Source: a virus
IMG/VR virus record: IMGVR_UViG_3300025838_000008
Length of the DNA: 42,888 bases
Strand: one strand, 5' to 3'
Shown here: piece by piece, positions 25,301-40,308 of the stretch
How positions within the stretch are numbered: position 1 is the first letter of the stretch
Layout: each line of letters opens with the position of its first letter
Notes under the pieces: generated by a model
Told to the model about the DNA's origin: nothing
The model's input: the letters and a program-made list of their open reading frames with translations, nothing else
The model's database searches: none
Made by a program: the position numbers and the translations under genes

Positions 25301-28300
25301 CTCGTCGAGAGTTTTTTGGTTTTCTTCGATTTTGTTGCGAAGCCCACGCGCCGAAAGAAAGTCGATCGCTCCTTGAATCGCTCCTTGTTCGCCACCAGCC
25401 ATGTACCCCTTTGCCGCGGCACGCGCAATGGGGTCGTTGGTGAGCCCGCTCAAACGGAAGTGCCAGTTGCCAATTTCGTCGGAACCGACAACGCCGCCTT
25501 TGGACCCTCGTGGGGCGGTTGCGTAATCCATTGAGTTCGTGATGCTGACCGGCAACCCTTCGTCGGTGCGAATCCCCTTTACCTCGTCGCCCAAGTAAGT
25601 CGAGCCGTGGCTGAGATACGCACTAACGCGGTCACCAAATGATGTGTCCCATGTCCCACGTTGGGCTAGTTCGTGCGCGTAATCAAGAATGTCGTTGGGC
25701 GTGAGCGCGCGGTACAAGCCGACGCGCAGACCATTGGCCCACTTGATCGCAGGAAAGGCGTGGATGACGGCGAGATAGCGGTCGCGCTTGTTGAGCAACG
25801 ACGCGTCTTTGCCTTGCCAAAAACTGTCGTGCCAGATTTCTTCCGGGACGTCGGTGGCAAGGGCGTCGAACAAACGCTTGGCGTCAAGCATGTTGATTTC
25901 GCTAATGCCTTTGGCGCTGTCGGGGATCAGCCCTTGCGTCTGAGCTTTGCGAAGCAACGGCCCCCACGTGTCGAGCGGATTGCCAAATTCGTCCAAATTG
26001 TCGACAGAGTTTGCGCGGTTGAGAACCGCCATGACTCGAGATTCTTGGCGTGCGTTGAGCGCACCTTCGGCGGTGCGCGCCATCCCCGATTGCACCAGTG
26101 ATTTGATGCCGTTGCGCAAAACGAAGTTGAGATCTTCTTCGCCAGCAAAACGGAACGCAAACCCCGAGCGCAACAACAACGCCGGCTTCCAGTACGCCGA
26201 CATGAATTTGTCTACCCACTGAGCGTTGAGCCCTGCGTGAAACAACGACATGAACCACGATTTCTTCGCAAACTTGTACCACTCGCGGAAATCCGGCAAC
26301 GACATGGCATCGGCAAATTGCGTGGTCAACAACGCGGCCGGAATGCGCGGCCCTTCGCGGTCAAAAGGGTTGACAATGAGGTCGTTGTCGTCGGTGCCGT
26401 AGGCGCGCGCTTGCCAACGCTCCATGAAATCGCGTCCGGCTTGCGAGTCAGTGACGCCCGAAACGTATGCCATGTTGTTGATAAGCCCCATGACAAAGGC
26501 GCGTTGGAGCCCGCGTTCTTCGGTGGGAATCGCTGCGTACCCATTTATTGCGGCAGCGACGTCTTGCTTTGGCAACGCGAACGACGCGAGCCGTTCGATT
26601 GTTGTCAGGTTGTTAGGCGCAAGCGCTTCCGGGGATTCAATGGCCCCGGCCTTGAATAAGGCTTTGGCGGCGTCGGTCGGATCCGCGCCAAACGAAATGA
26701 ACTTTTGCAACGGCACGAGCGTCGTGACGCGCTGAGTAAAGCGCACCGGCGCGGTCAACGGCAACGCGGCTTTGGCGTCAGCAATGCCTTCTTCGGTCAA
26801 TTGCGGCCCGAGCAATTCGGTCGATGCCTGAGTTGGTGTCAACTTGTCAATGTTGAAACGTCGGCCAGTCCAGCCGGTCGATTCCGCATCAAAGCCCATG
26901 ATCTTGTCGCGGATCGCTTGGGGCAGCGTGACGTGAGGGAACACCGTGGAGTTGTGGAAGAACTTGCCCGAACGCCCCATAAAGGTTTGCACCATCGCGT
27001 CGGACGACGCCATCATTTGCGCAATAGCCGTTTCGGGGTGCCCTTCGTCAGCCGCTTTTTTGATTTCGGGGAACCAGCGCGCGATTTGGTCGATTTGGCC
27101 TTGGCTTTCAATGGGTACGCCGGCTTCGCGCGCGAGGGCGATGTTGGGTTCGTCGGTGACAAGTTCACCGTTGCGCATGAACGGCGTGACCAACGAACGC
27201 GCGGCTTTGACGGCGAAGTCTTGCGCCGAAGGGACGTTGGCATAATGCGCCATGACGTCCTCGGCAGTTCCGGCGCTTTGGAACGTCGCCATCGAGTGAA
27301 TGGCAGATTTGTACGCGCCCGCTCCGACCAACGCTTGCTGCAAAGGGTTGCCGTACCACGAAACAAACCCATCGGCTACACCCGACAATGGGTGAATCGC
27401 TGCGCCAAACGGGGCCATCGTTGTTGACTGGTCGACAGTTTCACCGGACAATTGGCTTGCGGCAATGCCGGCGGCTCCTGAACCAAGGATCCCCGTGGCG
27501 GCGACGGTGCGCGCGGTGCCAAGCCCTGAAACGATGCCGCGCACGCCGCCGGCGGCTTCGGCCCCGCCTTCGGCAGCGCCAGCGGTGCCACCGGACACAG
27601 CAACGGCACCAATTTCGCCACCGATCGTCGCGGCTTGGGCGGCAACGGGCGTGATGTTGTCAAGCGCGGAATTGCTACCAGGCTCGAGCTTCTTGAACTG
27701 TGTGGGGTTGAGGCCGCCGAACACCATCTGGCCCAATGACAAGTGCGAGTCGGACAGCAATTGAACGGCTTGGCCGAAATCTTTGTTGGACTGAATTAGC
27801 CCGTAGGCGTTGGCGCGTTCGTTAGCGGGCAATGACGCGAGGGTCGCTTGCAGCGAACCCGTGGCTGCGTAAGTTTTGGCAAGTTGAAGGGTCGCGTCGT
27901 CAGGGATAAGAAATTTCTTGACGTAGGCGAGGGCTTCGGGCTGGAAAGACGATTGCCCGTTGGACACGCTGTTCCAGTGTTGGAGAATGTCAACGGGGTT
28001 GAGGACTTCGTACCACTTGTCCCACCCGTTTGAGGACGGCGAGTTTAGGATTTGGTCTTGCGCGTTGGCGAAAGAGGCGCGCTCGAGTTGACCAATCGGC
28101 GCGGCGGCTGCGTTGAAAACGTCACCTGCGTAGTGCGCGACTTCGCCCACGGTGTCGTGTAGCGCCGTTGACCCAGCGTGCCGAATGTCGTCAAGGCCGT
28201 GGACAAACGTGTTCCAGATTCCGCTGCCTTGTGGCGCGGGGGCGGTGGGAGGCTTGTACCCGAATGACCCGATCAGTGATTTGACGGCGTTGCTGGCTTT

Positions 28301-28531
28301 GTTCCACCACTGAGTCTGAAATTCCTCAGACTGTTGGGTGAGTTCAGTTGACAGCGATTGCGCGAGGGCCGCTTGCTGCGTAGCGATGGCTTTGACCGAG
28401 GCGTCAATGGGACCGTTGGCGGTTGCGGCGACGCCAGCCACGGCGTCGGGGGTCAGCAAAGGGGCTGAATTGGTTGCGGCCGAAACGTTGGAAGCGTTGA
28501 TGGCGGGGTCGTTGGGTTGAAGAATCGTCAC
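22340..28531 (-). CDS. giant virion-associated protein (2063 aa; internal/ejection or tape-measure-like)
   Basis: Single uninterrupted ORF with a 4-nt overlap with the upstream gene. Gly/Ala-rich hydrophobic stretch GGEIGAVAVSGGTAGAAEGGAEAAGG...GILGSGAAGIAASQL. A coiled-coil segment lies around AELRERLPQFEESHANAVSAERTAVENLNRIKSEL. No catalytic motif confidently recognised. Confidence 0.6.
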   Translation of the reverse strand: MTILQPNDPAINASNVSAATNSAPLLTPDAVAGVAATANGPIDASVKAIATQQAALAQSLSTELTQQSEEFQTQWWNKASNAVKSLIGSFGYKPPTAPAPQGSGIWNTFVHGLDDIRHAGSTALHDTVGEVAHYAGDVFNAAAAPIGQLERASFANAQDQILNSPSSNGWDKWYEVLNPVDILQHWNSVSNGQSSFQPEALAYVKKFLIPDDATLQLAKTYAATGSLQATLASLPANERANAYGLIQSNKDFGQAVQLLSDSHLSLGQMVFGGLNPTQFKKLEPGSNSALDNITPVAAQAATIGGEIGAVAVSGGTAGAAEGGAEAAGGVRGIVSGLGTARTVAATGILGSGAAGIAASQLSGETVDQSTTMAPFGAAIHPLSGVADGFVSWYGNPLQQALVGAGAYKSAIHSMATFQSAGTAEDVMAHYANVPSAQDFAVKAARSLVTPFMRNGELVTDEPNIALAREAGVPIESQGQIDQIARWFPEIKKAADEGHPETAIAQMMASSDAMVQTFMGRSGKFFHNSTVFPHVTLPQAIRDKIMGFDAESTGWTGRRFNIDKLTPTQASTELLGPQLTEEGIADAKAALPLTAPVRFTQRVTTLVPLQKFISFGADPTDAAKALFKAGAIESPEALAPNNLTTIERLASFALPKQDVAAAINGYAAIPTEERGLQRAFVMGLINNMAYVSGVTDSQAGRDFMERWQARAYGTDDNDLIVNPFDREGPRIPAALLTTQFADAMSLPDFREWYKFAKKSWFMSLFHAGLNAQWVDKFMSAYWKPALLLRSGFAFRFAGEEDLNFVLRNGIKSLVQSGMARTAEGALNARQESRVMAVLNRANSVDNLDEFGNPLDTWGPLLRKAQTQGLIPDSAKGISEINMLDAKRLFDALATDVPEEIWHDSFWQGKDASLLNKRDRYLAVIHAFPAIKWANGLRVGLYRALTPNDILDYAHELAQRGTWDTSFGDRVSAYLSHGSTYLGDEVKGIRTDEGLPVSITNSMDYATAPRGSKGGVVGSDEIGNWHFRLSGLTNDPIARAAAKGYMAGGEQGAIQGAIDFLSARGLRNKIEENQKTLDEHMASFSGKGNPEQEERTKELLGYAKSLQGRLTRHESLLKNSPRYSSVNGERVLTGETTRDLAIRQWAEDVWREVKTLTFTPHGQDFEDVDGEAQRIPVAGESEPIRLPDTVPGRMFWQIVNGDTGRPINLADESTAYFGVPKGHVRLFHGRNVDATTGADFSTEVAPGRSWSPSYERASRHAGEDGDVYQIDVPAKNLKAYYKYHPHAPDDVITAQEDARLAELRERLPQFEESHANAVSAERTAVENLNRIKSELGSAKEASAAIKDVHIAQKNLKTLDAQLTSAREQLAAGSSGDVLDRHIRGLMDDQQAGANTFGKPPKHMGSFESGDIGLAKSSEETKRTIIGEIARTGERGMPGVTPDTSELSRIESIHVPENITAPARIVTIKGANPVASIVDKGMRAIVGRPADWMSRQPAFLYNYAMSRREVDALLKARGIVDKSGDLAHEISMERATNETITYLHDPRARSQFAEVTRNLMPFWFAQEQWYKRWSRLFGTYPEAWYKLQQTMNGLRSVGFVTKDSYGQDSFVYPGSQAMLHLLSKVFGADLPVSVGLTGEINQLNPSLATGAEPWPAWGPIATIPMIVAGGLFPSTDGLVQKMLGPSAPPVNEHGNWKTDAINQLLPSIEYRTQQWLTSSIANQASNPTVQSIYMQSMIQAAQYLEANGHGLPANANPTQTQNYIDRISNWAQNLMLFRTMAGFFGPATPTFKFNDNGLGAQLQALLANTNSTFTYSDAIAAFIKAHPNATAYTLFSSTTAGDRESGTYVPATEAAANWLTSNATFVSNYPQLAPWLMPASTAQGAFSGTAYQQELNLHLRGERPLYDAIGHTGWYNQLKYSEGANVYFPMEAAVKTAEAQPGADVATLRQEWHNWSTSFKNSHPIFASMLTDPTAKNRRTAIIGEINQALVADALPQGELSQRLGELMAVYNQTVDAYNQTAGNSAYAQQHREAKLQMIAYGNAFAQDYPVVAPLWNGVLSQNVPG

Positions 28532-29016: not shown

Positions 29017-29219
29017 CAGTTACCTTCAATCGCGACCATTGCGTGCGTCATCCCGTAACGAGGTTCGGGGTGGCCGTCCTCCCACGCACATTGGTGAGTC
29101 GGAACAGCCACCGGTTCGCCGGACGCTGGCACAATTGAAAATCCGTACATCATGGCGGGGCACCGCTGCGGTTCGGCGGTGCGTTCGAGAACGGCGTTGA
29201 TGGAATCGAGTTCGTTCAT
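29016..29219 (-). CDS. hypothetical small protein
   Basis: ORF-track 67 aa. ATGA overlap with the portal stop. Confidence 0.5.
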   Translation of the reverse strand: MNELDSINAVLERTAEPQRCPAMMYGFSIVPASGEPVAVPTHQCAWEDGHPEPRYGMTHAMVAIEGN

Positions 29220-31060
29220 GTCGCGTTCGGGCTCACGTTGATGTTCATGCCTTGGACGACGTGACGGAAGTTCATCAAAGCGGGGTTCGGCGGGGGGACC
29301 GAATCGGGAGCGCCGCCTTGCTGCGGTCCACCGTTGGCGGCAAGCATCGCAGCCATGCCTGACGGAAGCGGAGATCCGTCCGGTCCTGTCGGCGGTTGAG
29401 GCGCACCGGGGCTGCCCGGAGCGGGCGCGGCGGTCTGCGCTTCGGCCATCGCGTCGATGAAGGCTTTGGCAAGCGTTTCCCCCGTTTCCAGTTTGGAGAG
29501 AAAGTGAGCGACCGTGACGGCGGTGACCGGCGACCCCGGAGTCGCGATTTCTTGCACGATTCCCCCGAGCAGCGCATCTTCGACTTTTTGGATGGCGACT
29601 TTTTGGCCCATTGCTTTCGAGTCGCCCACTAAAGGGTGCATGTCGCGCGCGGTGTCGCGGTCAATGACGTCGGTGGCCGTGAGTTGCGTGATGGCGACGG
29701 CGAGGCGGTTGGGGTCAGACCCCGGCATCGTGTAATGGACCACGTTGTCATCGCGCTTCAAGTGCTTTTCGGGCGTGTAAGTGACCGTCTTGGACGACCC
29801 CGGCAATCCTAGGTAGACCGTGCGCTTGCGCTTGGGGAAGTACCCGTTTTCAACAGCGACGACGGCACGGTTTACTTCGGCCAAGGCGTATTGCATGATG
29901 ACGTTGAGTTCTGCCGCCATTGGGTTTGCCGCGAAATCGCCCAGCGCGTCGACGCCAGCGCCCGTGCGCATTCCCCCGTTGGATCCGGCGTACAACTGGC
30001 TTGCGCCCGACGTCCCTCGAATGTGCTGGTCGACCATTTGCAACATGGGGATGGTGCCGGGACCAGGTTCCTTAGAAATTGTTTCGACCACGCCGTCGAT
30101 GACGACGTTGACTTTTCCGGTGCGACCGTCTTTCCACTCGTTACCGAGCAACTTGGGCGGCGTTCCGGTGCGCGACAACACCACCATGTCAGGGAAGATT
30201 GCTTTTTCGGTCGCCACCATTTGCAGGTTGAGCATTCGGGAGTACGTGTCCGACAGCCCAATGATGCCGTTCATCTGGCCCATGATGCGGTTCATGGTCA
30301 CTCGACGCGGAACGACGGCGGGCACGATGCCTGCCTTGTTGGGGTATCGCGAAAGTTCGACCGTCATTGACGGCTGCGGAATGGCGACGTTCATCACTTG
30401 GTTTGGGCTTTGCGGCCCAATGACGCCGATGACGATGTAGTCCTCGTCCAGCCACTCGACGACGTTCCACAAGGTTTCCCATTGCTGGTTTCCTTGGCCG
30501 ATCCATTTGGGGGCTGTCGGGAAATGGTCGCGGATCCACGCGGCTGAGCGCGGAAACACAAAGCCCACGTTCTTTGGCGTGCGAATGTCGTCAGCGGCTC
30601 GGAGTTCGGGGTACGCGGTCAACGGATCGCGGAGTTGAATGTCGACGCGCTGGTTCTTTTCGTCGGGGACGACGACAAAGCAAAAAGTTCCGTACCCGGC
30701 GGCGTGGCGATACGCGCGTCCGAGTTTGATTTGCAACTGCGATTCGTGCCATGCGCTGTAGAGAACGCCCTGGCGGATCTCCGCGATTTTGGAACTGGCG
30801 GGGTCGTCGGGGTTTTCGATGGGGCAAGTGATTTTGGGAAGATTGGCGTTGGCAATACGCGCCACGCCGTCGATACCTTCGACAAAGAAGTTTGGGCCCG
30901 GGCGGTTGGCGGCGGGAATGCCCGTGACGTCGGGCTGCAAAACGACCAAATCGCCGTTGTAACGCAACTGCGTTGCGGTCATTTGGCGAATGAAAGGGTC
31001 GTCGGCCATCATGCGTTGTCGCATGATCGACGCGATTTGGTCGATCGAGTAGTAGGCCAT
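29216..31060 (-). CDS. portal protein (positional)
   Basis: 614 aa from ATG 31060, which shares one base with the terminase stop (TAATG). The size and position directly after TerL fit a portal. The ORF-track start at 31093 would overlap the terminase. Confidence 0.6.
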   Translation of the reverse strand: MAYYSIDQIASIMRQRMMADDPFIRQMTATQLRYNGDLVVLQPDVTGIPAANRPGPNFFVEGIDGVARIANANLPKITCPIENPDDPASSKIAEIRQGVLYSAWHESQLQIKLGRAYRHAAGYGTFCFVVVPDEKNQRVDIQLRDPLTAYPELRAADDIRTPKNVGFVFPRSAAWIRDHFPTAPKWIGQGNQQWETLWNVVEWLDEDYIVIGVIGPQSPNQVMNVAIPQPSMTVELSRYPNKAGIVPAVVPRRVTMNRIMGQMNGIIGLSDTYSRMLNLQMVATEKAIFPDMVVLSRTGTPPKLLGNEWKDGRTGKVNVVIDGVVETISKEPGPGTIPMLQMVDQHIRGTSGASQLYAGSNGGMRTGAGVDALGDFAANPMAAELNVIMQYALAEVNRAVVAVENGYFPKRKRTVYLGLPGSSKTVTYTPEKHLKRDDNVVHYTMPGSDPNRLAVAITQLTATDVIDRDTARDMHPLVGDSKAMGQKVAIQKVEDALLGGIVQEIATPGSPVTAVTVAHFLSKLETGETLAKAFIDAMAEAQTAAPAPGSPGAPQPPTGPDGSPLPSGMAAMLAANGGPQQGGAPDSVPPPNPALMNFRHVVQGMNINVSPNAT

Positions 31061-33195
31061 TAGGCCCCGACCTTGTAACTTGGCGGCGTCCAAATTGGTG
31101 TCATCGGTGGCCGCGCTCCTTCTCCGAGGTTCACTACTGCGCCATCGTACATGGTGACCGCGCTAAGTCCTTGTCTGGTCCATTGTTCGCCGTAGGTGCT
31201 TTCCGCCACGTCGCGCAAGTTTTTCCACACGAGGTAGCAGAACCACAAACTCATTAGTGAGTCCTGCCGAAGTCGACGCGTGGGAATGTCCGAACGCCAC
31301 GACATGAGTTGGTCGAACAGAAGCGCCATGTCCGTGTCGTTTTCGGTGACGCGAGGGAAACGGATTTCTCCGCGCACGATGGCGTTCATCATTGGGGGAA
31401 TTCCCATTGACTCGTCGAGCTTGTTGCGCCCGGTGTGGTGAGGAACTGCCGAAAACCCGAATTGCTCTTGGATTTTGAGGAACGCGTCGTCGGTGAGGAA
31501 CGTTGATTGGAGCGTGTTGTTTTCGATTACCCAATAGTCGGGGCCGAACTTGGCACTCGAGGTTTCGATTTCTTGAAAAATGCGCTGGCTGGTGGTTGCC
31601 TTGAACAAGTCTTTGGTGTTGATGACGTACAGGTAGTCCGCGTCGTAAGCGCAGTACGTGAAAGCTGCGTGCGCGTGGAGACTGGGATCGAGCCCGGCGA
31701 TGCGCCCAATGCCCAACGTCTGTCCGTCGACAATGGTTTGACCGACGACGCGCTCGCGGTCAGTGGCTTTGCCAATGTCGTCGGCCGTGACGTATGCCTC
31801 TTGCGACGATTGGGGCTGCATCATGTAGACGCGGCTCCATTGGTCCTCGCCAATCTTGGCGCGGCGCTGGGCCAAGTCCTCGTCGTCCCAGCCAAGTTGG
31901 TTGCCTTTGTCGTCGCACAACGGCGCGCGGTCGCCGTTTGGCAGGTCAATCCATTGACGAGGAAAGTTTGACTGGAATCCGACCGGCTTGCTGAGGTCGA
32001 GCGCGGGGATGCACACGAACTCGTCCAAAAATCCGGGGATTTTTTCCATTTCTTCGTACACGTCGCCCTTGGCAACGCGGTTGCAAATGAAGATGATGCG
32101 TCCGTTTTTGCCCGGTCGAGTGATGACGTCGCCCTGGATGATTTCAAGGAAACGCTTGGTGTCGCCTTTGGTTTTGAGCGATTGAATGTCGTCGAGAACG
32201 ATCCAGTCCCAGCGCGCACCACGAATCTGACCGGTAATGCCGACTGTGACGACCGAGGGGTCGGCCTCGTCGTGGGTGGATTTTGCCAACGTGATTTCGT
32301 CGGCGTTCCATTTTTTGCTTCTTTCACCGCTCGGTGGTTGGAACGGCCCAAAATGCGCGTACAAAGGGGGGATTTTTGAGGCGTTGTCCCATTCCAAGCG
32401 CCGTTGTAGGCGTCCCATCTGCTTTCGAGCGAAGTCTTGGTTTTCCCCGATGTACGCGAAACGCACGTCGGGGTTCGCGCAAAGTTCGGCCACCATAATG
32501 TCGTTCAGACTGGTGGACTTCATCCATTCGGGCGGTATCTGAATCATGGTGATGCCACCGAGAGGGGCGTTTTCGATGGCCTCAAACAGTTTCCAGATGT
32601 GGGGGAACGTGTCGAAATTGAAGTACGCCTTGCGGAAAGCGGCCCAATACGCCGCGCGAGTCTTGAATTGCTCGGGGCGAACCGGCTCGAAGTCGTCGTG
32701 GTTGGGCCGCGGAGTCTCGAGCTCGGCCATCATCCGGCGGCGTTCGGCTTCCGCCATCGCTTCGGCGGCTTGACGCTTGAATTTTGGCGAGTTGTATTGC
32801 CACGCATACCAGGTTTGGGTCGATCGTTTGACCTCGCGCATGGCGTCGGCGGGTGCCATGCCCGCGCTGACGAGTTTGAGAACCTTCATTTTTGCCATGT
32901 CCGCGGCGTCGGAGCGCTGTTTGCGCCCGAAGTTCAACCCTTCGACGTTGAAATTGCTGATTTCGGTGCGCTTGGTTTCGGGCAGTTTGTCCAGAACGTC
33001 CTGCAAATCGTTGGCGATTTTGGTTTCAGCCGGCGTGGGCGGCGTGTTCGCCGCGGCAGCTGCGCGCGCGGCACGGTTGGCGGCGGCGGCGGCACGGGCT
33101 TTTTTGAGAGATTCGAGTTGTTTCGCTCGAGCGGCAACGGGATCTTTGGGCGGCGTATAGCCGGGGTAGATCTTGCGTGGTTCCTCGTCGCTCAC
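31060..33195 (-). CDS. terL: terminase large subunit with an N-terminal extension of about 190 aa that contains an HTH
   Basis: P-loop-like IQIPPEWMKSTS, Walker B WDWIVLDDIQ and a nuclease-domain-like AGLDPSLHAHAAFTYCAYD. The N-terminal MKVLKLVSAGMAPADAMREVKRSTQTWYAW looks like a small-terminase HTH. GTG start in a GTGA overlap with the whiB-like stop. Confidence 0.8.
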   Translation of the reverse strand: MSDEEPRKIYPGYTPPKDPVAARAKQLESLKKARAAAAANRAARAAAAANTPPTPAETKIANDLQDVLDKLPETKRTEISNFNVEGLNFGRKQRSDAADMAKMKVLKLVSAGMAPADAMREVKRSTQTWYAWQYNSPKFKRQAAEAMAEAERRRMMAELETPRPNHDDFEPVRPEQFKTRAAYWAAFRKAYFNFDTFPHIWKLFEAIENAPLGGITMIQIPPEWMKSTSLNDIMVAELCANPDVRFAYIGENQDFARKQMGRLQRRLEWDNASKIPPLYAHFGPFQPPSGERSKKWNADEITLAKSTHDEADPSVVTVGITGQIRGARWDWIVLDDIQSLKTKGDTKRFLEIIQGDVITRPGKNGRIIFICNRVAKGDVYEEMEKIPGFLDEFVCIPALDLSKPVGFQSNFPRQWIDLPNGDRAPLCDDKGNQLGWDDEDLAQRRAKIGEDQWSRVYMMQPQSSQEAYVTADDIGKATDRERVVGQTIVDGQTLGIGRIAGLDPSLHAHAAFTYCAYDADYLYVINTKDLFKATTSQRIFQEIETSSAKFGPDYWVIENNTLQSTFLTDDAFLKIQEQFGFSAVPHHTGRNKLDESMGIPPMMNAIVRGEIRFPRVTENDTDMALLFDQLMSWRSDIPTRRLRQDSLMSLWFCYLVWKNLRDVAESTYGEQWTRQGLSAVTMYDGAVVNLGEGARPPMTPIWTPPSYKVGA

Positions 33196-33877: not shown

Positions 33878-33906
33878 AAAGTAGCGCGTGGGAACGTGTT
33901 TGTCAA
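33878..33906 (-). promoter_or_regulatory. late-operon promoter (leaderless geometry)
   Basis: Minus strand: TTGACA (33906..33901), 17 nt, TACTTT (33883..33878), 6 nt, ATG 33871. Confidence 0.55.
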
Positions 33907-33919
33907 TGATATATTGACA
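33901..33919. promoter_or_regulatory. palindrome TGTCAAT-N5-ATTGACA shared by divergent promoters (candidate operator)
   Basis: 7-bp perfect arms. Each arm reads TTGACA in the outward direction. The central GATAT is part of the plus-strand extended -10. Confidence 0.55.
33907..33915 (+). promoter_or_regulatory. extended -10 promoter (TGATATATT) for leaderless HTH gene
   Basis: TGn-TATATT, 7 nt, then ATG 33923. No convincing -35 hexamer. Confidence 0.45.
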
Positions 33920-33922
33920 CTG

Positions 33923-34150
33923 ATGACCCACGAAATGAAGATCCGGCGCGCAAACAGCCTTTTGGCAACACGACGTCGAGCTCTTTCAGCCGCGGTGCAG
34001 GTTGCTCGAGCCGAGGGTGTGCCCTGGCGCACGATTGGTAAGTGGCTTGGGGTCAGCGGACAGGCCGCGCAGCAGCGTTTTGGGCGTGACAGTGAGAATG
34101 AGTCTCAATATTGTCAACCATCCATTGACGTGAACGACGCGCAAAGGTAG
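33923..34150 (+). CDS. helix-turn-helix regulator (Cro/repressor-like candidate)
   Basis: VPWRTIGKWLGVSGQAAQQRFG is a classic HTH/sigma-region-4-like segment. Start chosen at ATG 33923 from the promoter geometry. ATG 33935 and the ORF-track GTG 33896 are alternatives. Confidence 0.55.
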   Translation: MTHEMKIRRANSLLATRRRALSAAVQVARAEGVPWRTIGKWLGVSGQAAQQRFGRDSENESQYCQPSIDVNDAQR

Positions 34151-34494: not shown

Positions 34495-34543
34495 TCTAGA
34501 CTGAACAGCGTTTACGAAGCGCACGTCACTTTCGAGACAGGAG

Positions 34544-34571
34544 CCCACCCTTCGGGGTGGGTTTTCTGTTT
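34544..34571 (+). terminator. rho-independent terminator
   Basis: CCCACCC-UUCG-GGGUGGG followed by UUUUCUGUUU. Confidence 0.75.
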
Positions 34572-34596
34572 GTGCGTTGGCGTTGTCGAGGGTGTC

Positions 34597-34625
34597 TTGA
34601 CACGCATGTTGCGTCGACATATTCT
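34597..34625 (+). promoter_or_regulatory. near-consensus promoter driving the ORF-poor region
   Basis: TTGACA (34597..34602), 17 nt, TATTCT (34620..34625). The spacer contains the palindrome ACGCA-TGT-TGCGT. Flanked by TGTCGA/TCGACA. Confidence 0.6.
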
Positions 34626-34631
34626 GATGCC

Positions 34632-35540
34632 CTCAGCCGGTGCAGCTGATGTGGGTGCGAATCCCCTCCGGGTACGAGCGAGTGACGCGTAGCGCCTCCT
34701 AGACCGGAAGTGTCCCCGGTTAGAGCGGGATCAAGTACCCCGCGCCTCGAGTTGAACGACAGTCCTCGTGGTGATGTGTTGGAATCCCATCGTGAGAAAC
34801 TGACCGGCTTCGGGGATGCGGTGGATTGCAAACGTCAAAAGCGTTGAGGACACTCAGGTGAACTAGATCTTCGGTGCTCGAGAACTACCTGACGCCTCGC
34901 TTCGCTCGTTGTCCTAGCGCGCCTAACGGCTTGCTCCCATGTGAAGCCAAATGAGAATGAGTCTCAAAGCCGTGGATCTTGTCGACGTCAAAGGTCGTCA
35001 CTGGGGCTTGAGAAGGCGTGTGAATGTGCCCGAATGGTGCGATCGAAACGCTCAGGATGCGAAAAATACCGAGAATTTTCGGAGGGGGACAGAACGAACA
35101 AAGCCCTGAGCGGTGAGACACATGCCGGGTTACAACACCAGACACTCAAGCAGGCGGCTCAACCTCGTGTCCGCTCAGGGCTCGGGGTCAGATGCGACTG
35201 CCACCCTCAGACACTCTCGAAACTGCAAGTCACAGCAAACTCGCAGAGTCATGTTTCACGTGGAACACCAACTGGTCACGCCACCGGTCAACACCATCGA
35301 CTCACACTCGCCTCACTCACATTCTGCTGATGAATGAGGTATGTGGGGCGCAGCCGAAATGAAGGGTCGCGGCACGCGCCGCTCCCGTCGAACACGTTGA
35401 CAGCACGCGAGCGTCGCAGACAGCAACACGCCGAGACGGTCGCCGTTGCACCCACGAACAGCACGACCGCAAACCAACCAACGCGCCCAACCCTCAGCTA
35501 GTCCAACTCGGGACAAAACCACCAGGGACTACCGAAAACA
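34632..35540 (+). ncRNA. candidate long structured non-coding transcript or 5' leader
   Basis: About 0.9 kb with only short or compositionally odd ORFs. GC3 of the longest, 34941..35330, is about 50% by my count. It lies behind a strong promoter and has several long helices (for example 35102..35182). No known RNA family recognised. Confidence 0.3.
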
Positions 35541-35541
35541 C

Positions 35542-35570
35542 TTGACAGCGCGCCAACACTATGCCAGAAT
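35542..35570 (+). promoter_or_regulatory. promoter with leaderless geometry for the plus-strand operon
   Basis: TTGACA (35542..35547), 17 nt, CAGAAT (35565..35570), 6 nt, ATG 35577. No SD upstream of the ATG. Confidence 0.5.
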
Positions 35571-35576
35571 ATACGC

Positions 35577-36023
35577 ATGACAACACACGGAGCCACCACC
35601 ACACCAACAACGCGCGCATGGAAAACAGCGCTAACCGCAAACGGATTTTACAACGTGTTCGAGGAAGACCTCGCAGGTGGGATCTGGTGCCTCCACGCCG
35701 AATTTGGCGAAGGTGGCGACAGACTCGCAGAAATACGCATCATGGGAGCGACACCCGAAACAGAACGCAGCAACTCAGAACTATGGACATACCACTACCC
35801 CACACCCCACGACACCCACACGTGTCACGCGCTCTACATCAGCAAGCCACGCGCGCAATGGACACCAGAGGAACACCAACACGGACCGGAAACGTACGAA
35901 GTACAAGACGACCCAAACGACAGCATCACACCAAACACGCCAGACGCAACCACAGCGCGCGCGATCCTACACCACGCCATACGAACCTACCAGCGCGCAA
36001 CAAAAGGAGAACTCGCCTACTAA
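35577..36023 (+). CDS. hypothetical protein (148 aa)
   Basis: All three forward frames are open here because the strand is T-poor. This frame has the only protein-like composition (…FYNVFEEDLAGGIWCLHAEFGEGGDRLAEIRIMG…) and its ATG fits the leaderless promoter. Confidence 0.55.
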   Translation: MTTHGATTTPTTRAWKTALTANGFYNVFEEDLAGGIWCLHAEFGEGGDRLAEIRIMGATPETERSNSELWTYHYPTPHDTHTCHALYISKPRAQWTPEEHQHGPETYEVQDDPNDSITPNTPDATTARAILHHAIRTYQRATKGELAY

Positions 36024-36115
36024 CAACACGTCGCGCAGTGTGCAGACACCACCGACCCACGACCGGAGCGCGACACTCTGACAACACCGTCAGAACAACA
36101 GAACAGGAAACCACA

Positions 36116-36739
36116 ATGAGCATCGACACCCAAACCACAACGACAACGCTCAGCATGAGCGCGACCGAACTACGACACCTCGCGACGATCGCGAACTACG
36201 CAAGCAAAGACGAAGCACGCCCATTACTCACCTACGTGAGACTGACGCCCAACGGAGACACGTGCGAAGCCATCACGACGGACAGTTACGTACTGGCGCG
36301 AATAATCGTCGACGTTAAAACCAGCGACCACACCAACACGACGCCTATCTACGTGCGCGCCGAACTACTAGAGCGCGCTGTAAAAACCTTCGCAAACAGT
36401 CGCACGCGCGCCACCGGAACAATCACCATCACAGACGACGGGCACAACACGACCGTTACCAGCAACAACTACCCCGACACAATCGGCGCGCCCAGCATGA
36501 CAGACACATACCCCGACGTAGATAGGTTGATCCCAAGCGCCCGAGGAATCAGCGAAGTCACCACGGGAGTAGCCCTAAACCCCCACTTTCTCGCCAAACT
36601 CGCGAAATTGTACCCGTGGAACGAAGACAAGACGAGCGGCGCCATCATCCGAACCATCACCGACGCAACACGCCCAATCGTCATCGAATCGCGCGACGGA
36701 CGGACGACCGTTCTACAAATGCCGATGCGACTTCCATAG
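36116..36739 (+). CDS. DNA polymerase III beta sliding-clamp-like protein (short form)
   Basis: ATG 36116 after AGGAAA. ...ASKDEARPLLTYVRLTP...AITTDSYVLAR (DnaN-like TDxxRLA motif) and C-terminal ALNPHFLAKLAKL...RTTVLQMPMRLP (DnaN-like ...vlMPmRl end). The upstream 185 codons of ORF 35561..36739 are discounted. Confidence 0.6.
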   Translation: MSIDTQTTTTTLSMSATELRHLATIANYASKDEARPLLTYVRLTPNGDTCEAITTDSYVLARIIVDVKTSDHTNTTPIYVRAELLERAVKTFANSRTRATGTITITDDGHNTTVTSNNYPDTIGAPSMTDTYPDVDRLIPSARGISEVTTGVALNPHFLAKLAKLYPWNEDKTSGAIIRTITDATRPIVIESRDGRTTVLQMPMRLP

Positions 36740-36790
36740 GACGAAACGCGCGCGAGCGCGTCCACTGGTAATGCCAGTGCTGATGAGTCC
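36739..36790 (+). ncRNA. type II hammerhead ribozyme, copy 1
   Basis: GGAC|GAAA|CGCGC-GCGA-GCGCG|U|C^|CACUGG-UAAUG-CCAGUG|CUGAUGA|GUCC. The core is complete. Stem III has 6 bp including A15.1-U16.1 and a GNRA loop. Stem I has 6 bp. Open stem II has 4 bp with G10.1-C11.1. Predicted cleavage is after C36762. Confidence 0.85.
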
Positions 36791-36809
36791 AAACAGGGAG
36801 ACAACAACA

Positions 36810-37166
36810 ATGACCACAACAACCAACCACACCACCGAAACGCTAGCGACACTTGCCGCCGCTATTACGTGGCACAGCGACAACGGGCACGGATGGCTAC
36901 AGATCGACGGCCACCGAGCGCCCGCACTGATGCTGTTGGCCCGCGAGTGTTCGACCGGCTACGACTACGCACACGACGGGAGTATCTACCTCGAAGAAGA
37001 TTGCTCAGTCGGGGTATTCGCTCGCACCATCAGCGCGCGCTACAACATCGACCCCGATAACGTGCGCGCGACGATCAGCGCGGCCGACGATATCTACACG
37101 AACGGAGATTCACCGGTACGCACCTACAGCCGCCTAGCCGCCGGCCGGATCGGGAAAAACTACTAA
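36810..37166 (+). CDS. hypothetical protein (118 aa)
   Basis: ATG 36810, 8 nt after AGGGAGA. The ORF-track start at 36771 lies inside the ribozyme stem I loop. Confidence 0.6.
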   Translation: MTTTTNHTTETLATLAAAITWHSDNGHGWLQIDGHRAPALMLLARECSTGYDYAHDGSIYLEEDCSVGVFARTISARYNIDPDNVRATISAADDIYTNGDSPVRTYSRLAAGRIGKNY

Positions 37167-37169
37167 CCA

Positions 37170-37220
37170 GATCGAAACGGGCTTAGCCCGTCGTCGCGTG
37201 ATGCGCGGCCTGATGAGATC
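37170..37220 (+). ncRNA. type II hammerhead ribozyme, copy 2
   Basis: GAUC|GAAA|CGGGC-UUA-GCCCG|U|C^|GUCGCG-UGAUG-CGCGGC|CUGAUGA|GAUC. Predicted cleavage is after C37192. Confidence 0.85.
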
Positions 37221-37241
37221 AGCGAACAGGGAGATACAGAA

Positions 37242-37745
37242 ATGACCACACACGAAACCCGAACCGGCGCCGAAATGGTGCGCGACGTGTTCAACGAATA
37301 CGTTGCAGCACTTGACGGAATCGACGTACTGACAAGCGCGCTTGACATGCTCGACGCACGCAACATGGAGCTAACCCTACGCAACGCGCGGACGGCTGCG
37401 CGCGCGTTCACCCAAGACCCAACCGAGCGCAAAAACGCGCTACGTGTCATCGACGACACCGAGCACGCCACCACCGAACCGGAGGACAGCGTAGCCATGG
37501 CCTATTTCGAGGACATACTCGAAGCCGTCATACACGGACAGCGCACCCTCGGCGGAGAATGGCGCGCCACCGAACTTGAATTCTTACTTGCCTACGGCGG
37601 CCCGACAGTACGCATGACCAACAACGGCAGCGCAGAATACGTACGCCTCACCGTCACATGGGCCGGCGACGAACACAGCGCGCGCGTGTACGCGCCAGCC
37701 ACGGCAGCGTTCATGAGTGAGATGCTCGACGCCTACGCCGAGTAG
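37242..37745 (+). CDS. hypothetical protein (167 aa)
   Basis: ORF track; AGGGAGA 7 nt upstream. Confidence 0.65.
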   Translation: MTTHETRTGAEMVRDVFNEYVAALDGIDVLTSALDMLDARNMELTLRNARTAARAFTQDPTERKNALRVIDDTEHATTEPEDSVAMAYFEDILEAVIHGQRTLGGEWRATELEFLLAYGGPTVRMTNNGSAEYVRLTVTWAGDEHSARVYAPATAAFMSEMLDAYAE

Positions 37746-37867
37746 CCCAGCGCGCCCAGCGCGCACGACCCCCGACCCCACCAGGCCGGAGCTCGTGCGG
37801 GCCGAGTGAGCCCGAGCAATTCGCAACGATGCGAGCAACGCAATAGCAAAACAGGGAGATGCGAGAA

Positions 37868-38431
37868 ATGGCGATACACGAAACAACAGCGGCACCGACA
37901 CCGGAAAACTGCGGTCCGCTCAACCAATGCGAGCGCTGCCGGAACCTAACCGCCGTCGAGGAACTGCGCGAGTCTGGCGACACGGTGGAACTCGACAACG
38001 GGCGCGCGATCCGGCTGACTATCGAACCGGATTACGACACCGAACTAAATGACTTCCCCGACTGCTACGGGCTGGTCGAATTCGCGCGGCGCAATCGCAA
38101 TTACGGTGGATGGGTCCGGCCCGAGGGATTCGACGGCAACGCCGAGGTAATGAGTTGCGGGAATTCCGACCCGTACTGGTGGCAACCGCCAGCAGACGTA
38201 AAGCGCGGCACTGAGGGATTCGAGAAACTGCGTCGAACGGTGCGCGAGCTTGTGGAATTCGGATTCGTCGGGGTCGTTGTGGAATTGCGAGAAACGCTTA
38301 GCGATTCTCACGGCAACCCACACGTCGTCACGGTGGACACGAATTCGTTGTGGGGGATCGAATGGGGGGTCACGGGTGACTACCTCGCCGGCACGATTCG
38401 CGACCTGGTGGACGGCTGGATAGGCGAGTAA
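37868..38431 (+). CDS. hypothetical protein (187 aa)
   Basis: ATG 37868, 8 nt after AGGGAGA; the ORF-track start at 37859 overlaps the SD. Confidence 0.6.
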   Translation: MAIHETTAAPTPENCGPLNQCERCRNLTAVEELRESGDTVELDNGRAIRLTIEPDYDTELNDFPDCYGLVEFARRNRNYGGWVRPEGFDGNAEVMSCGNSDPYWWQPPADVKRGTEGFEKLRRTVRELVEFGFVGVVVELRETLSDSHGNPHVVTVDTNSLWGIEWGVTGDYLAGTIRDLVDGWIGE

Positions 38432-38434
38432 CAA

Positions 38435-38484
38435 GAACGAAACGCCTACGGGCGTCCGCGGGTGATTCTCGCGCTGATGAGTTC
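38435..38484 (+). ncRNA. type II hammerhead ribozyme, copy 3
   Basis: GAAC|GAAA|CGCC-UACG-GGCG|U|C^|CGCGGG-UGAUU-CUCGCG|CUGAUGA|GUUC. The stem III loop is of UNCG type. Predicted cleavage is after C38456. Confidence 0.85.
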
Positions 38485-38504
38485 AGAAAATAGGGAGAAA
38501 TGAA

Positions 38505-38711
38505 ATGCACACCGAGAAAGTTCAAGGATTCAAGGTACGGTGCCGGACCTGCCGGACCACACCGCAGGCCGAGAGCGCGGCACGCGGCGTCTTTCAGCAC
38601 GCCGTAGTAATGCGAGAAACGCTCTACGCATGGGCTGACGGACCACACAACGGCCACGACGTTGTTGCCGAGCCCGCGACCATCGAGGTCATCGTTGGGG
38701 ATGTGGCGTGA
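38505..38711 (+). CDS. hypothetical protein (68 aa)
   Basis: ORF track; AGGGAGA 6 nt upstream. Confidence 0.55.
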   Translation: MHTEKVQGFKVRCRTCRTTPQAESAARGVFQHAVVMRETLYAWADGPHNGHDVVAEPATIEVIVGDVA

Positions 38712-39001
38712 TGACTTGGTACTACCGGATCAACGCGCCACACGACGAGCTCGAAGATGACGGCACCAGCCACGGGCTAGTTCCAATCAACGAAGCCACC
38801 GAATTTGTCGCCAATTCCTTGGCGTGCTTATGGCGCGAAAATGGCGACGAGAGCTACCTGCACGCCATCGCTGACGTCCTAAGCCCCGATCGGACACGGG
38901 ACGGTTGGCGCGACGCCGCCAGTATCCCCGACCTGACGGCATGGAAAAAAAACGTGGATGGCAAGCTGTGGACCATCACCGGAGAGGAAGTCCCAGCGTG
39001 A
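38708..39001 (+). CDS. hypothetical protein (97 aa)
   Basis: ORF track. GTG 38708 or ATG 38711 overlaps the upstream stop. Confidence 0.55.
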   Translation: MMTWYYRINAPHDELEDDGTSHGLVPINEATEFVANSLACLWRENGDESYLHAIADVLSPDRTRDGWRDAASIPDLTAWKKNVDGKLWTITGEEVPA

Positions 39002-39177
39002 GAGCCGTTCAGTACGTCGAAACGGGCGAGCCCGACCGCCTATGCGATTCGTGTATCGCGGACTTGGGGGGGCGCGTCGAAGTCATCTCGCGCGCTATCG
39101 TTGCCGTCGAGGGGCAACGGTGCGCCGGATGCTGGCAGACGGTCTACACCGACTCGGTGGGGAAGGAAAGAAAGTAG
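38998..39177 (+). CDS. small zinc-ribbon protein (59 aa)
   Basis: GTG 38998 in a GTGA overlap. Sequence VRAVQYVETGEPDRLCDSCIADLGG...QRCAGCWQ, with two CxxC pairs. Confidence 0.5.
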   Translation: MRAVQYVETGEPDRLCDSCIADLGGRVEVISRAIVAVEGQRCAGCWQTVYTDSVGKERK

Positions 39178-39182
39178 GATTA

Positions 39183-39201
39183 TCGCGCTCGCTGAGCGCG
39201 A
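39183..39201. terminator. terminator hairpin between convergent operons
   Basis: tcgcgctc-gct-gagcgcga. Confidence 0.55.
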
Positions 39202-39239
39202 GCCGCCGTCAGGTTCCATCCCTGTTCCCTGACGGCGGC
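39202..39239. terminator. second, 12-bp terminator hairpin between convergent operons
   Basis: gccgccgtcagg / cctgacggcggc with a 14-nt loop. Confidence 0.6.
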
Positions 39240-39273
39240 TCAGGCCCAGCGGATCAAGATTTAGCGATGCGAG

Positions 39274-39774
39274 TTAGGCTTTGCGGGCCTTCTTAGCCTC
39301 GGCCTTCAACATTTCACGGTCGACAAACTCGTCGTCGCTGTCATCGAACAACATGATTGACGCGCCGATTTGTTGCGAGCCACGCGCGTACCGCTTTTCA
39401 GCTCGGATCGAATACAAGAGCGAGTCGTCCTTGAGCAACCCGCTATTGACCAAGGCATCCCCAACGCTGCGAATCAACTTGTCGAGGTCCGGCGCGGTCG
39501 TGTGCCGTGTCCTGTGAGGGTCCGATTTGGGTAATGGTAGGTAGAACGTCACTTCGAGTTCTGTCGGCCCTGAGAACGGCGTTGCGCGCCCGTTGAGAGC
39601 GTTCTGAGCGGCCACCATGACGTCGTTGCGCCAGTTGTGGTGCTTTTCTCGGCCTACTTTGCTCGATCCGTCCACGATGACCGCTCGGCCCCCTCGGACA
39701 TAAGCCGACTTGGATCCCTGTGGCGCTGGAAGGCCAGCCACGAAGAAGAACGATACTGACGTCGCCGCGCCCAC
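39274..39774 (-). CDS. rusA: RusA-family Holliday junction resolvase
   Basis: GTG 39774 shares one base with the upstream stop (TAGTG). FFVAGLPAPQGSKS..., LEVTFYLPLPKS and APDLDKLIRSVGDALVNSGLLKDDS match the RusA pattern. The ORF-track N-terminal 62 aa are discounted. Confidence 0.75.
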   Translation of the reverse strand: MGAATSVSFFFVAGLPAPQGSKSAYVRGGRAVIVDGSSKVGREKHHNWRNDVMVAAQNALNGRATPFSGPTELEVTFYLPLPKSDPHRTRHTTAPDLDKLIRSVGDALVNSGLLKDDSLLYSIRAEKRYARGSQQIGASIMLFDDSDDEFVDREMLKAEAKKARKA

Positions 39775-39995
39775 TACTCGGCCACCATGACGCGCATTTC
39801 CAAACCGATGTACCGGTCGCCCTGAGCGTTGTCGAACCACTCCGACATTTCCTTGGGGGACACGACTTCGCGTTGCTCGATGGCACGCGAGCTCGAGTTG
39901 GTGAGCGCGTGCCTCCATTCGTGGTTGATGCGTACTACGGCAGTACGACAAACGTTGCATAATCCGCCGTCTGCGTCAATTTCGTGGTCAACCAT
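39774..39995 (-). CDS. hypothetical protein (73 aa)
   Basis: ATG 39995 overlaps the methyltransferase stop by 8 nt. Sequence MVDHEIDADGGLCNVCRTAV.... Confidence 0.5.
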   Translation of the reverse strand: MVDHEIDADGGLCNVCRTAVVRINHEWRHALTNSSSRAIEQREVVSPKEMSEWFDNAQGDRYIGLEMRVMVAE

Positions 39996-40308
39996 GTAAC
40001 CCCACCAACCGATCAACAATGAACTGCACCACTGGCACAGCAACCGCATTGCCCATCTGCTTGTAGCGGTGGCTGTCGGCTTGCGAATCGGTCCAGTCGT
40101 CGGGGAATCCCTGCAACCGCTCGCACTCCCTCGGAGTAAGCCTGCGCACCGAAACGTCGGTAGCAGACACGACCGTAGCCCGAGCCTCTCCTGTGTTATC
40201 CATTGCGTTCAAGGTCGGACAGACCCCCCCCTGTCGCCAAACCTCGGGCGGCAGGTTGCCCTCCGCGTCCCTGGCCCCCGACCTCACCACCTTCACAAAC
40301 CACAACAT
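39988..40308 (-). CDS. dcm: C5 cytosine DNA methyltransferase, C-terminal portion (motifs IX-X), in a different frame from the N-terminal portion
   Basis: CPTLNA, RRLTPRECERLQGFPDDWT and YKQMGNAVAVPVV. ATG 40308 is preceded by GGAGGA. It overlaps the 3' end of 40196..41239 by 113 nt in another frame. Confidence 0.7.
   Translation of the reverse strand: MLWFVKVVRSGARDAEGNLPPEVWRQGGVCPTLNAMDNTGEARATVVSATDVSVRRLTPRECERLQGFPDDWTDSQADSHRYKQMGNAVAVPVVQFIVDRLVGLHG

Follow-up and report, generated by a model that had tools for sequence, protein, structure and literature searches.

Whether the transcript of a phage operon is cut into pieces by ribozymes encoded in its own spacers is the question raised by IMG/VR virus record IMGVR_UViG_3300025838_000008, a stretch of 42,888 nucleotides (nt) that is referred to here, in its full length, as the window. 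An initial annotation had described three spacers of a plus-strand operon as covarying type II hammerhead ribozymes that would divide the polycistronic RNA into single-gene units. Direct reading of the sequence bore out the layout: the three elements are type II hammerhead sequences located between co-oriented phage genes. We consider it likely that they act as self-cleaving ribozymes in these spacers and split the transcript of the operon, with cleavage being predicted.

Three type II hammerhead sequences between phage genes

Hammerhead 1 (HH1) lies at 36739-36790, hammerhead 2 (HH2) at 37170-37220, and hammerhead 3 (HH3) at 38435-38484. They are 50-52 nt long, fall within 1.75 kb, and are all encoded on the plus strand, which is also the strand of the genes. 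From 5' to 3', each element consists of a 4-nt strand, GAAA, a hairpin closed by an A-U pair, a single C, a second hairpin (6 bp, loop of 5 nt), CUGAUGA, and the complement of the 4-nt strand. This strand order is that of type II, with stems I and III capped by loops and stem II open. The catalytic core is complete in all three copies, comprising C3 U4 G5 A6 N7 G8 A9, G12 A13 A14, the pair A15.1-U16.1 that closes stem III, and C17 (H17, i.e., not G). All 15 core positions are identical across the copies, which are otherwise divergent.

In HH1, stem II is formed by GGAC/GUCC, stem III by CGCGC/GCGCG around the loop GCGA, and stem I by CACUGG/CCAGUG around the loop UAAUG, with C17 at 36762 and the core CUGAUGA at 36780-36786. 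The corresponding parts of HH2 are GAUC/GAUC for stem II, CGGGC/GCCCG around UUA for stem III, and GUCGCG/CGCGGC around UGAUG for stem I (C17 at 37192, core at 37210-37216). HH3 is composed of GAAC/GUUC, CGCC/GGCG around UACG, and CGCGGG/CUCGCG around UGAUU, respectively (C17 at 38456, core at 38474-38480). The stem II pair adjoining the core (C11.1-G10.1) is C-G in all three copies, and stem I of HH1 and HH2 can be extended to 7 pairs through a U-G pair.

The identical cores and covarying helices reported by the initial annotation were confirmed as well. In the alignment of the three copies, standard pairs were found in 47 of 47 pair cells, and 8 of the 16 helix pairs showed compensatory changes on both sides, a degree of pairing and change that was reached by 0 of 500 shuffles; this comparison comprises only three sequences, all of them paralogues of one genome. 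Sliding the partner strand by 1-3 columns lowered the pairing to 21-51%. Furthermore, the minimum-free-energy fold of every isolated copy is the hammerhead three-way junction (z = -3.1 for HH1), and a type II descriptor returned 3 sites in the window, whereas 300 dinucleotide shuffles gave 0.007 sites on average and never more than 1. The heptamer CTGATGA occurs 7 times in the window, counting both strands, and 3 of these occurrences are the hammerhead cores. The occurrences at 33920 and 35327 were ruled out as hammerheads, since the helices are absent.

While no match was obtained in the whole window with Rfam at gathering thresholds, the use of E-value thresholds revealed matches of RF02276 (Hammerhead_II, clan CL00010) at exactly the three sites, which were the only credible ones in the window and to which the model aligned end to end (model positions 1-66). 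The scores were 30.3 bits for HH1, 29.5 bits for HH2, and 27.3 bits for HH3 (E-values of 0.0012-0.0075 in a 2-kb scan), and in the scan of the whole window, E-values of 0.026-0.044 were obtained for HH1 and HH2.

In addition, we employed R1, a covariance model built from 41 aligned compact type II hammerheads of unrelated IMG/VR contigs (see the survey below). With filters off, R1 scored HH1 at 68.6 bits, HH2 at 61.6 bits, and HH3 at 57.9 bits, and no other place in the window scored above 11.2 bits. The window copies are close to the consensus, as seen for the loop region of HH1, where GUAAUGC corresponds to GUaAuGC in R1. All three share the traits of the R1 subclass: the stem I hairpin measures 17 nt, with 6 bp and a 5-nt loop whose first base is U, stem II has 4 bp, and a pseudoknot is lacking. 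The match to R1 is not fully independent, because the training set was fetched with a pattern modelled on the window copies and the descriptor demanded paired helices. A covariation count on the 41-sequence alignment was set aside, since the descriptor had required the pairing of those sequences. What the R1 result shows is that the window copies are, in their sequence, typical of a widespread form. Further or degenerate hammerheads were detected in the window neither with a relaxed core regular expression nor with R1 with filters off.

The operon and the predicted pieces of its transcript

According to the gene calls of public assemblies, the hammerheads occupy the spacers between genes A and B, B and C, and D and E of a series of co-oriented plus-strand genes. 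Gene A (36116-36739; 207 aa) has PHROG and Pfam matches to sliding-clamp-like or processivity-factor-like proteins, and its TAG stop codon (36737-36739) overlaps the first base of HH1. No function has been assigned to gene B (36810-37166; 118 aa), gene C (37242-37745; 167 aa), or gene D (37868-38431; 187 aa). Gene E (38505-38711; 68 aa) is followed and overlapped by gene F (38708-39001). The initial annotation placed each element 0-3 nt after a stop codon, which is accurate for HH2 and HH3, both of which begin 3 nt past a TAA, but not for HH1 with its overlap of 1 nt. On the downstream side, the start codons of genes B, C, and E lie 19, 21, and 20 nt past HH1, HH2, and HH3, respectively, each preceded by the Shine-Dalgarno sequence AGGGAGA (36795-36801, 37228-37234, and 38492-38498).

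The spacer between genes C and D (37746-37867, plus strand; about 113-122 nt) is GC-rich and contains a direct tandem repeat of two copies of CCAGCGCGC as well as several short hairpins. It harbors no hammerhead, no Rfam match at E<=10, and no match to R1, and its folding z is -1.9. AGGGAGA is present here too (37853-37859), and its 4 occurrences on the plus strand of the window all fall into the four spacers of the operon. Thus, the motif does follow each of the three hammerheads, as had been noted initially, but since it also precedes gene D in a spacer without a hammerhead, it represents a feature of the operon and not a part of the ribozyme.

A promoter-like site at 35542-35570 on the plus strand (TTGACA-17-TG-CAGAAT), which is a consensus match only, could start a transcript of genes A-F, and no terminator-like sites were found on the plus strand at 35600-39200. 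With their common orientation, short spacers, and lack of terminator-like sites, a co-transcription of genes A-F is plausible.

From the hammerhead numbering, cleavage is predicted 3' of C17, i.e., between 36762 and 36763 in HH1, between 37192 and 37193 in HH2, and between 38456 and 38457 in HH3, all on the plus strand and in agreement with the sites initially annotated. The resulting four-part split would yield an outer piece ending with gene A, a fragment of 430 nt with gene B alone (36763-37192), a fragment of 1264 nt with genes C and D together (37193-38456), and an outer piece starting with gene E. Because the spacer between genes C and D lacks a ribozyme, the predicted products are not all single genes, and the notion of single-gene units applies to gene B but not to genes C and D.

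Mechanistically, stems III and I would form as local hairpins during the synthesis of the polycistronic RNA, transcription of the 3' strand of the 4-bp stem II would close the junction, and the RNA would then cut itself 3' of C17. The short stem II would be expected to melt, allowing the two halves to part. The upstream messenger RNA (mRNA) would thereby acquire a 3' end consisting of the stem III hairpin with a 2',3'-cyclic phosphate, and the downstream mRNA would begin with the stem I hairpin carrying a 5' hydroxyl group (5'-OH), followed by an accessible AGGGAGA Shine-Dalgarno sequence. The stability and translation of neighbouring genes could then diverge. We infer the cleavage, the fate of its products, and the effect on gene dosage from the chemistry of the ribozyme family and from experiments on comparable clusters that date from 2011. 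The effect of the 5'-OH on mRNA stability could go either way. On the one hand, a 5'-OH end evades the 5'-monophosphate-dependent RNase E, and on the other hand, RNase J1 of Bacillus subtilis degrades the 5'-OH product of the glmS ribozyme.

Compact hammerheads, alternative folds, and competing explanations

A pattern scan of IMG/VR with the motif common to the three copies yielded at least 120 loci (L012-L131), and applying the descriptor to them revealed at least 188 type II hammerheads, referred to below as the listed elements. Among the matches listed, 34 of 115 locus-strands carry at least 2 type II hammerheads and 12 carry at least 3, with arrays reaching at least 10 members by the descriptor. 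As identified by Rfam, 11 members are found within 3.9 kb in the array of L081 (2817-6749, minus strand) and 10 in that of L027 (167-5156, minus strand); moreover, L054 and L064 harbor arrays of 7 and 4-5 type II hammerheads, respectively, within a few kb. Many array members score 27-36 bits and thus below the RF02276 gathering score, so that threshold-based annotation would report only part of each array.

The position of these hammerheads relative to genes is tightly constrained. For 145 of the 188 listed elements, an open reading frame (ORF) ends just upstream and another starts downstream on the same strand, compared to 20 elements when the opposite strand is considered. Among the 168 listed elements with an upstream ORF, 139 (83%) have its stop codon ending 1-7 nt before G12, where it adjoins or extends into the 5' strand of stem II; for HH1, HH2, and HH3, this distance is 3, 7, and 7 nt. 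Past the end of the hammerhead, the start codon follows at a median of 23 nt (interquartile range 17-28, 188 listed elements), with 19, 21, and 20 nt in the window. Judging from these predicted elements, the layout of stop codon, ribozyme, and Shine-Dalgarno sequence is the rule for phage type II hammerheads, and the arrangement found in the window is not new and very common in phage sequences.

Indeed, clustered hammerheads flanking single genes in prophages were described in 2011, together with the proposal that long phage transcripts are processed into operon- or gene-length mRNAs (Perreault et al., PMC3088659). Three such clusters cleave in vitro, the triple arrangement of Agrobacterium tumefaciens does so in Escherichia coli as well, and it was remarked that the genes flanked by hammerheads vary between cases (PMC3088659). 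The idea of transcript processing was repeated in a review from 2019, in which the purpose was called still undefined (PMC6765202), and type II hammerheads near phage genes of Desulfovibrio vulgaris cleave in vivo (PMC8782182). The presentation of three copies at the boundary of stop codon and Shine-Dalgarno sequence as an unusual system could therefore not be upheld, given the description in 2011 and a geometry common among the 188 phage hammerheads listed. The compact form with a loop I of at most 5 nt, to which the window copies belong, accounts for about half of the listed elements (89 of 188). This subclass is a grouping that results from the pattern scan and not a curated family, and we found no publication describing it.

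Several observations weigh against a splitting of the operon transcript by the three elements. The cleavage of these sequences is a prediction made from the sequence, and co-transcription is supported only by the shared orientation of the genes, the shortness of their spacers, and the lack of terminator-like sites. All 8 of 8 recovered copies of the phage have identical hammerheads, so there is no variation within the lineage on which selection could be tested, and most of the distant homologues of gene D have no adjacent hammerhead. Furthermore, the RF02276 scores of 27-30 bits are under the curated gathering score of 37 bits, which is an operational and not a structural criterion. The Rfam check proposed by the initial annotation was thus positive at exactly the three sites (E-values of 0.001-0.008) but remained below that score. 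The low scores are attributable to the short loop I (5 nt versus about 10 nt) and the missing pseudoknot tail. As members of phage arrays elsewhere also score 27-36 bits with RF02276 (7 of 10 in L027 and 4 of 4 in L064), sub-threshold scores like those of the window copies are normal for real elements.

The remaining objections concern folding. A pseudoknot between loop I and the 3' tail, which constitutes a tertiary contact, has been reported for the majority of type II hammerheads (PMC3088659), and it is what most of them use for fast cleavage at physiological Mg2+. As a criterion, we required a minimum of 4 bp joining loop I to the 3' tail, a feature typical of type II though not obligatory. 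This pseudoknot is absent from the window copies, in which the best 2-3 pairs are at the level of the mismatched-tail control, and no pseudoknot between loop I and the 5' flank was found above control level in the three copies. Where loop I measures 9 nt or more, 94% of the listed elements can join it to the tail by 4 or more Watson-Crick pairs, compared to 28% in the mismatched control, and no such signal was detected for those with a loop I of at most 5 nt. A substitute tertiary contact was likewise not identified in the three copies, and since neither the pseudoknot nor another contact was identified, the rate of cleavage in vivo could be low. It should be noted that loop I begins with U in at least 90% of the compact set, an indication that this base plays some part, and an unrecognised tertiary contact is possible.

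In addition, HH2 and HH3 can adopt an alternative hairpin that competes with stem II. In HH2, this is CUGAU-GAG-AUCAG (37210-37222, plus strand), in which C3-U7 of the core pair with the 3' strand of stem II and the tail, and in HH3, it is CUGA-UGAGU-UCAG (38474-38486, plus strand). The alternative and the hammerhead have energies of -21.8 and -21.7 kcal/mol in HH2 and of -20.5 and -19.1 kcal/mol in HH3, placing the two states of both copies within about 1.5 kcal/mol. When folded in a context of 141 nt, HH1 retains the hammerhead fold, and HH2 and HH3 form the core/(A)UCAG hairpin in place of stem II, which also counts against the splitting of the transcript. The tails in question are GAUCAG in HH2 (37217-37222) and UUCAG in HH3 (38482-38486). 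Within at most 20 nt past the core, AUCAG was found in 15 of 60 compact elements listed, 11 of them at two fixed offsets, compared to 0 of 95 listed elements with a longer loop I and 2 of 183 upstream control segments; examples are found in L012, L023, L049, L062, L064, L076, L091, L116, and L129. The (A)UCAG tail may inhibit folding, or its hairpin may arise once the RNA has been cut and then, as in the predicted folds of the product, lie stacked on stem I at the 5' end so created.

A different pairing was observed for HH1. In its 141-nt context fold, CUUCC at the end of gene A (36731-36735) pairs with GGGAG (36796-36800) of the Shine-Dalgarno sequence of gene B. Since this pairing extends stem II of HH1 across internal loops, cleavage and the separation of the strands would free that Shine-Dalgarno sequence. 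The pairing may be due to chance, as HH2 and HH3 have no equivalent.

These folding properties lend some weight to an account that we regard as unlikely, in which the elements are true hammerhead sequences with slow, incomplete, or conditional cleavage. They would then represent weak or regulated processing sites, or the alternative hairpin would lock the product after cleavage. Minimal hammerheads without tertiary contacts need high Mg2+, and the pseudoknot potential of the window copies is no higher than that of the control. Furthermore, the alternative hairpins of HH2 and HH3 match or beat stem II in energy and win in the context folds, but the underlying nearest-neighbour energies leave out the stacking of the hammerhead core and tertiary energy. 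The occurrence of AUCAG in 15 of 60 compact elements, but in 0 of 95 with a longer loop, among those listed, suggests selection and not accident. However, with 89 of 188 listed elements, the compact form is abundant and shows equally tight gene geometry, which argues for function, and the conserved U of loop I leaves room for a tertiary contact of a kind not yet recognised.

Less probable still, and in our view a speculative extension of the self-cleavage proposal, is a coupling of the compact, pseudoknot-free hammerheads to translation and to a conformational switch. In 83% of the listed elements with an upstream ORF, the stop codon is so close to G12 (ending 1-7 nt before it) that a ribosome terminating there would mask stem II or unwind it. 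The (A)UCAG tail could keep the ribozyme off until it is needed, or it could instead snap shut after cleavage, so that the cut could not be reversed and the downstream mRNA would start with a double hairpin. If true, a well-known ribozyme would thereby gain a level of regulation that has not been described.

It is very improbable that neighbouring hammerheads serve to excise the RNA between them for circular or spliced ligation, as in viroid-like or retrozyme systems. A fragment between two hammerheads would have the 5'-OH and 2',3'-cyclic-phosphate ends that are joined by RtcB-type ligases. The possibility was raised for such clusters by Perreault et al., but the products were sought and none were found (PMC3088659). 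Moreover, the 5' GAUC of HH2 and the 3' GUCC of HH1 pair at 2 of 4 positions, and GAAC of HH3 and GAUC of HH2 at 3 of 4. As the strands of stem II are complementary within the elements and not between neighbours, no chimeric ribozyme would form across the junction.

Finally, we give practically no credence to ordinary intergenic hairpins (mRNA stabilisers, RNase sites, protein-binding sites, or terminators) that resemble hammerheads by coincidence: each element does contain two GC-rich hairpins, and stem III of HH3 together with GUUUC, the complement of GAAAC, scores terminator-like on the minus strand, but the three copies agree at all 15 core positions while diverging elsewhere, only 0.007 such motifs are expected by chance in a window, the covariance-model matches fall exactly on the three sites, and a role as terminators is ruled out by the absence of a T-run after the hairpins and of any terminator call on the plus strand.

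The phage, homologues of gene D, and comparison with known systems

The window represents an almost complete genome of a tailed phage that has not been cultured, with the terminase (31060-33195), portal (29216-31093), and major head protein (13002-14120) encoded on the minus strand. Contigs of 42.8-42.9 kb with the same genome have been obtained from several independent metagenomes. A WhiB-family gene adjoins the terminase gene, and the host is therefore probably an actinobacterium. The genome looks virulent and is known from metagenomes only, and we assign the hammerhead operon to its early or replication side. Megablast of 35000-40000 against GenBank phages yielded no match, and the terminase is only about 26% identical to terminases of Streptomyces phages; thus, the phage has no annotated close relative. 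Exact-protein look-ups returned only copies of the same phage, and a single-protein scan of IMG/VR with gene D returned no orthologous loci.

The closest homologue of gene D, P0002 (71% identical), is encoded on a contig with suggestive spacers of 81-91 nt. No hammerheads were found near gene D homologues in loci L009-L011 or in 11 of 13 IMG/VR loci. L133 contains one hammerhead at a distance of 2.4 kb from the homologue, and in L134, a type II hammerhead stands immediately before the homologue (39% identity), with another one after the two-gene block that the homologue forms with a small gene. The hammerheads of L134 (2973-3029 and 3750-3804, plus strand) have loop I/tail pseudoknots of 5-6 bp and the core CCGAUGA with C at position 4, and in the first of them, the upstream TGA stop codon serves as part of stem II. 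In a scan of 64 kb, neither of the two was reported by Rfam at E<=1. The L027 array likewise includes cores reading CCGAUGA and CUGAAGA. Since hammerheads accompany gene D homologues at few loci, with L134 as the exception, the ribozymes appear to be movable punctuation and not fixed partners of particular genes, in agreement with the 2011 remark on the flanked genes (PMC3088659).

In other phage-like contigs, gene D homologues sometimes adjoin genes for ArdA or ArdC, so that gene D may be a member of a set of anti-restriction or early genes. Such homologues were observed in L010 (2597-3067) and L011 (844-1881) among genes for ArdA, ArdC-N/MPTase-PolyVal, DUF2958, PAPS-reductase-like, and Uma2 proteins, and no hammerhead was detectable in the 74-89-nt spacers of these two loci.

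Besides the operon, a few other regions of the window are worth noting. The structural genes on the minus strand and the block of genes on the plus strand diverge at 33890-33929, where the inverted repeat TGTCAAT-gatat-ATTGACA is followed by CTGATGA, with GTGGG/CCCAC as flanks. This site looks like a promoter or operator region and not like a ribozyme, with R1 scoring only 10.7 bits (E-value of 0.2). Between a strong terminator-like hairpin on the plus strand (34540-34565) and the promoter-like site at 35542-35570 lies a stretch of about 1 kb without a convincing gene call (34566-35540). It contains a second promoter-like site at 34597-34625 and showed no Rfam match, no transfer RNA, and no excess folding energy (z = 0.2). 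Furthermore, an ORF of 2063 aa on the minus strand (22340-28531), shortly downstream of the portal gene, had no PHROG match at E<=1e-5.

The window adds one clean example to a phenomenon known since 2011, i.e., phage operons that are punctuated by self-cleaving ribozymes. Its practical value lies in a compact test construct, as a 1.8-kb fragment would comprise three ribozymes with distinct predicted products of 430 and 1264 nt. The survey is perhaps more useful than the case itself: because several compact arrays score below the Rfam gathering threshold, routine annotation probably misses many compact hammerheads.

The closest parallels to the window are the triples reported by Perreault et al. 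(PMC3088659) for A. tumefaciens (around ardA), Clostridium scindens, and Azorhizobium caulinodans. As in these triples, a stretch of about 2 kb contains several hammerheads, which are encoded on the gene strand between the genes of a phage operon and flank single genes or short blocks, and the same role is proposed for them, namely the conversion of long phage transcripts into gene-length mRNAs. The proximity of gene D homologues to ArdA and ArdC genes elsewhere echoes the link of the A. tumefaciens triple to ardA. In contrast to the 2011 triples, the phage of the window is uncultured, probably actinobacterial, and known from metagenomes, all copies are compact and without a pseudoknot, and cleavage is predicted. 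With the RF02276 consensus, the window copies share the core, the strand order, and a stem II left open while loops close stems I and III, but they differ from it by a loop I of 5 nt instead of about 10 nt, a stem II of 4 bp, and the lack of the pseudoknot. Compact hammerheads from IMG/VR have the same geometry of stop codon, ribozyme, and start codon as the window copies, and the core-complementary (A)UCAG tail of HH2 and HH3 is a feature of a quarter of this subclass.

The D. vulgaris elements whose activity in vivo was demonstrated by cyPhyRNA-seq (PMC8782182) are likewise of type II and located near phage-like genes, two of them close together. They measure about 68-70 nt, whereas those of the window measure 50-52 nt. 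A comparison can also be drawn with RiboJ, reportedly introduced by Lou et al. in Nat Biotechnol in 2012, which is said to be a synthetic insulator engineered from a type III satellite-RNA hammerhead and an added hairpin. As with RiboJ, a ribozyme placed before the Shine-Dalgarno sequence would provide the downstream gene with a defined, hairpin-led 5' end regardless of the upstream sequence; unlike RiboJ, the elements of the window are natural phage sequences and belong to type II.

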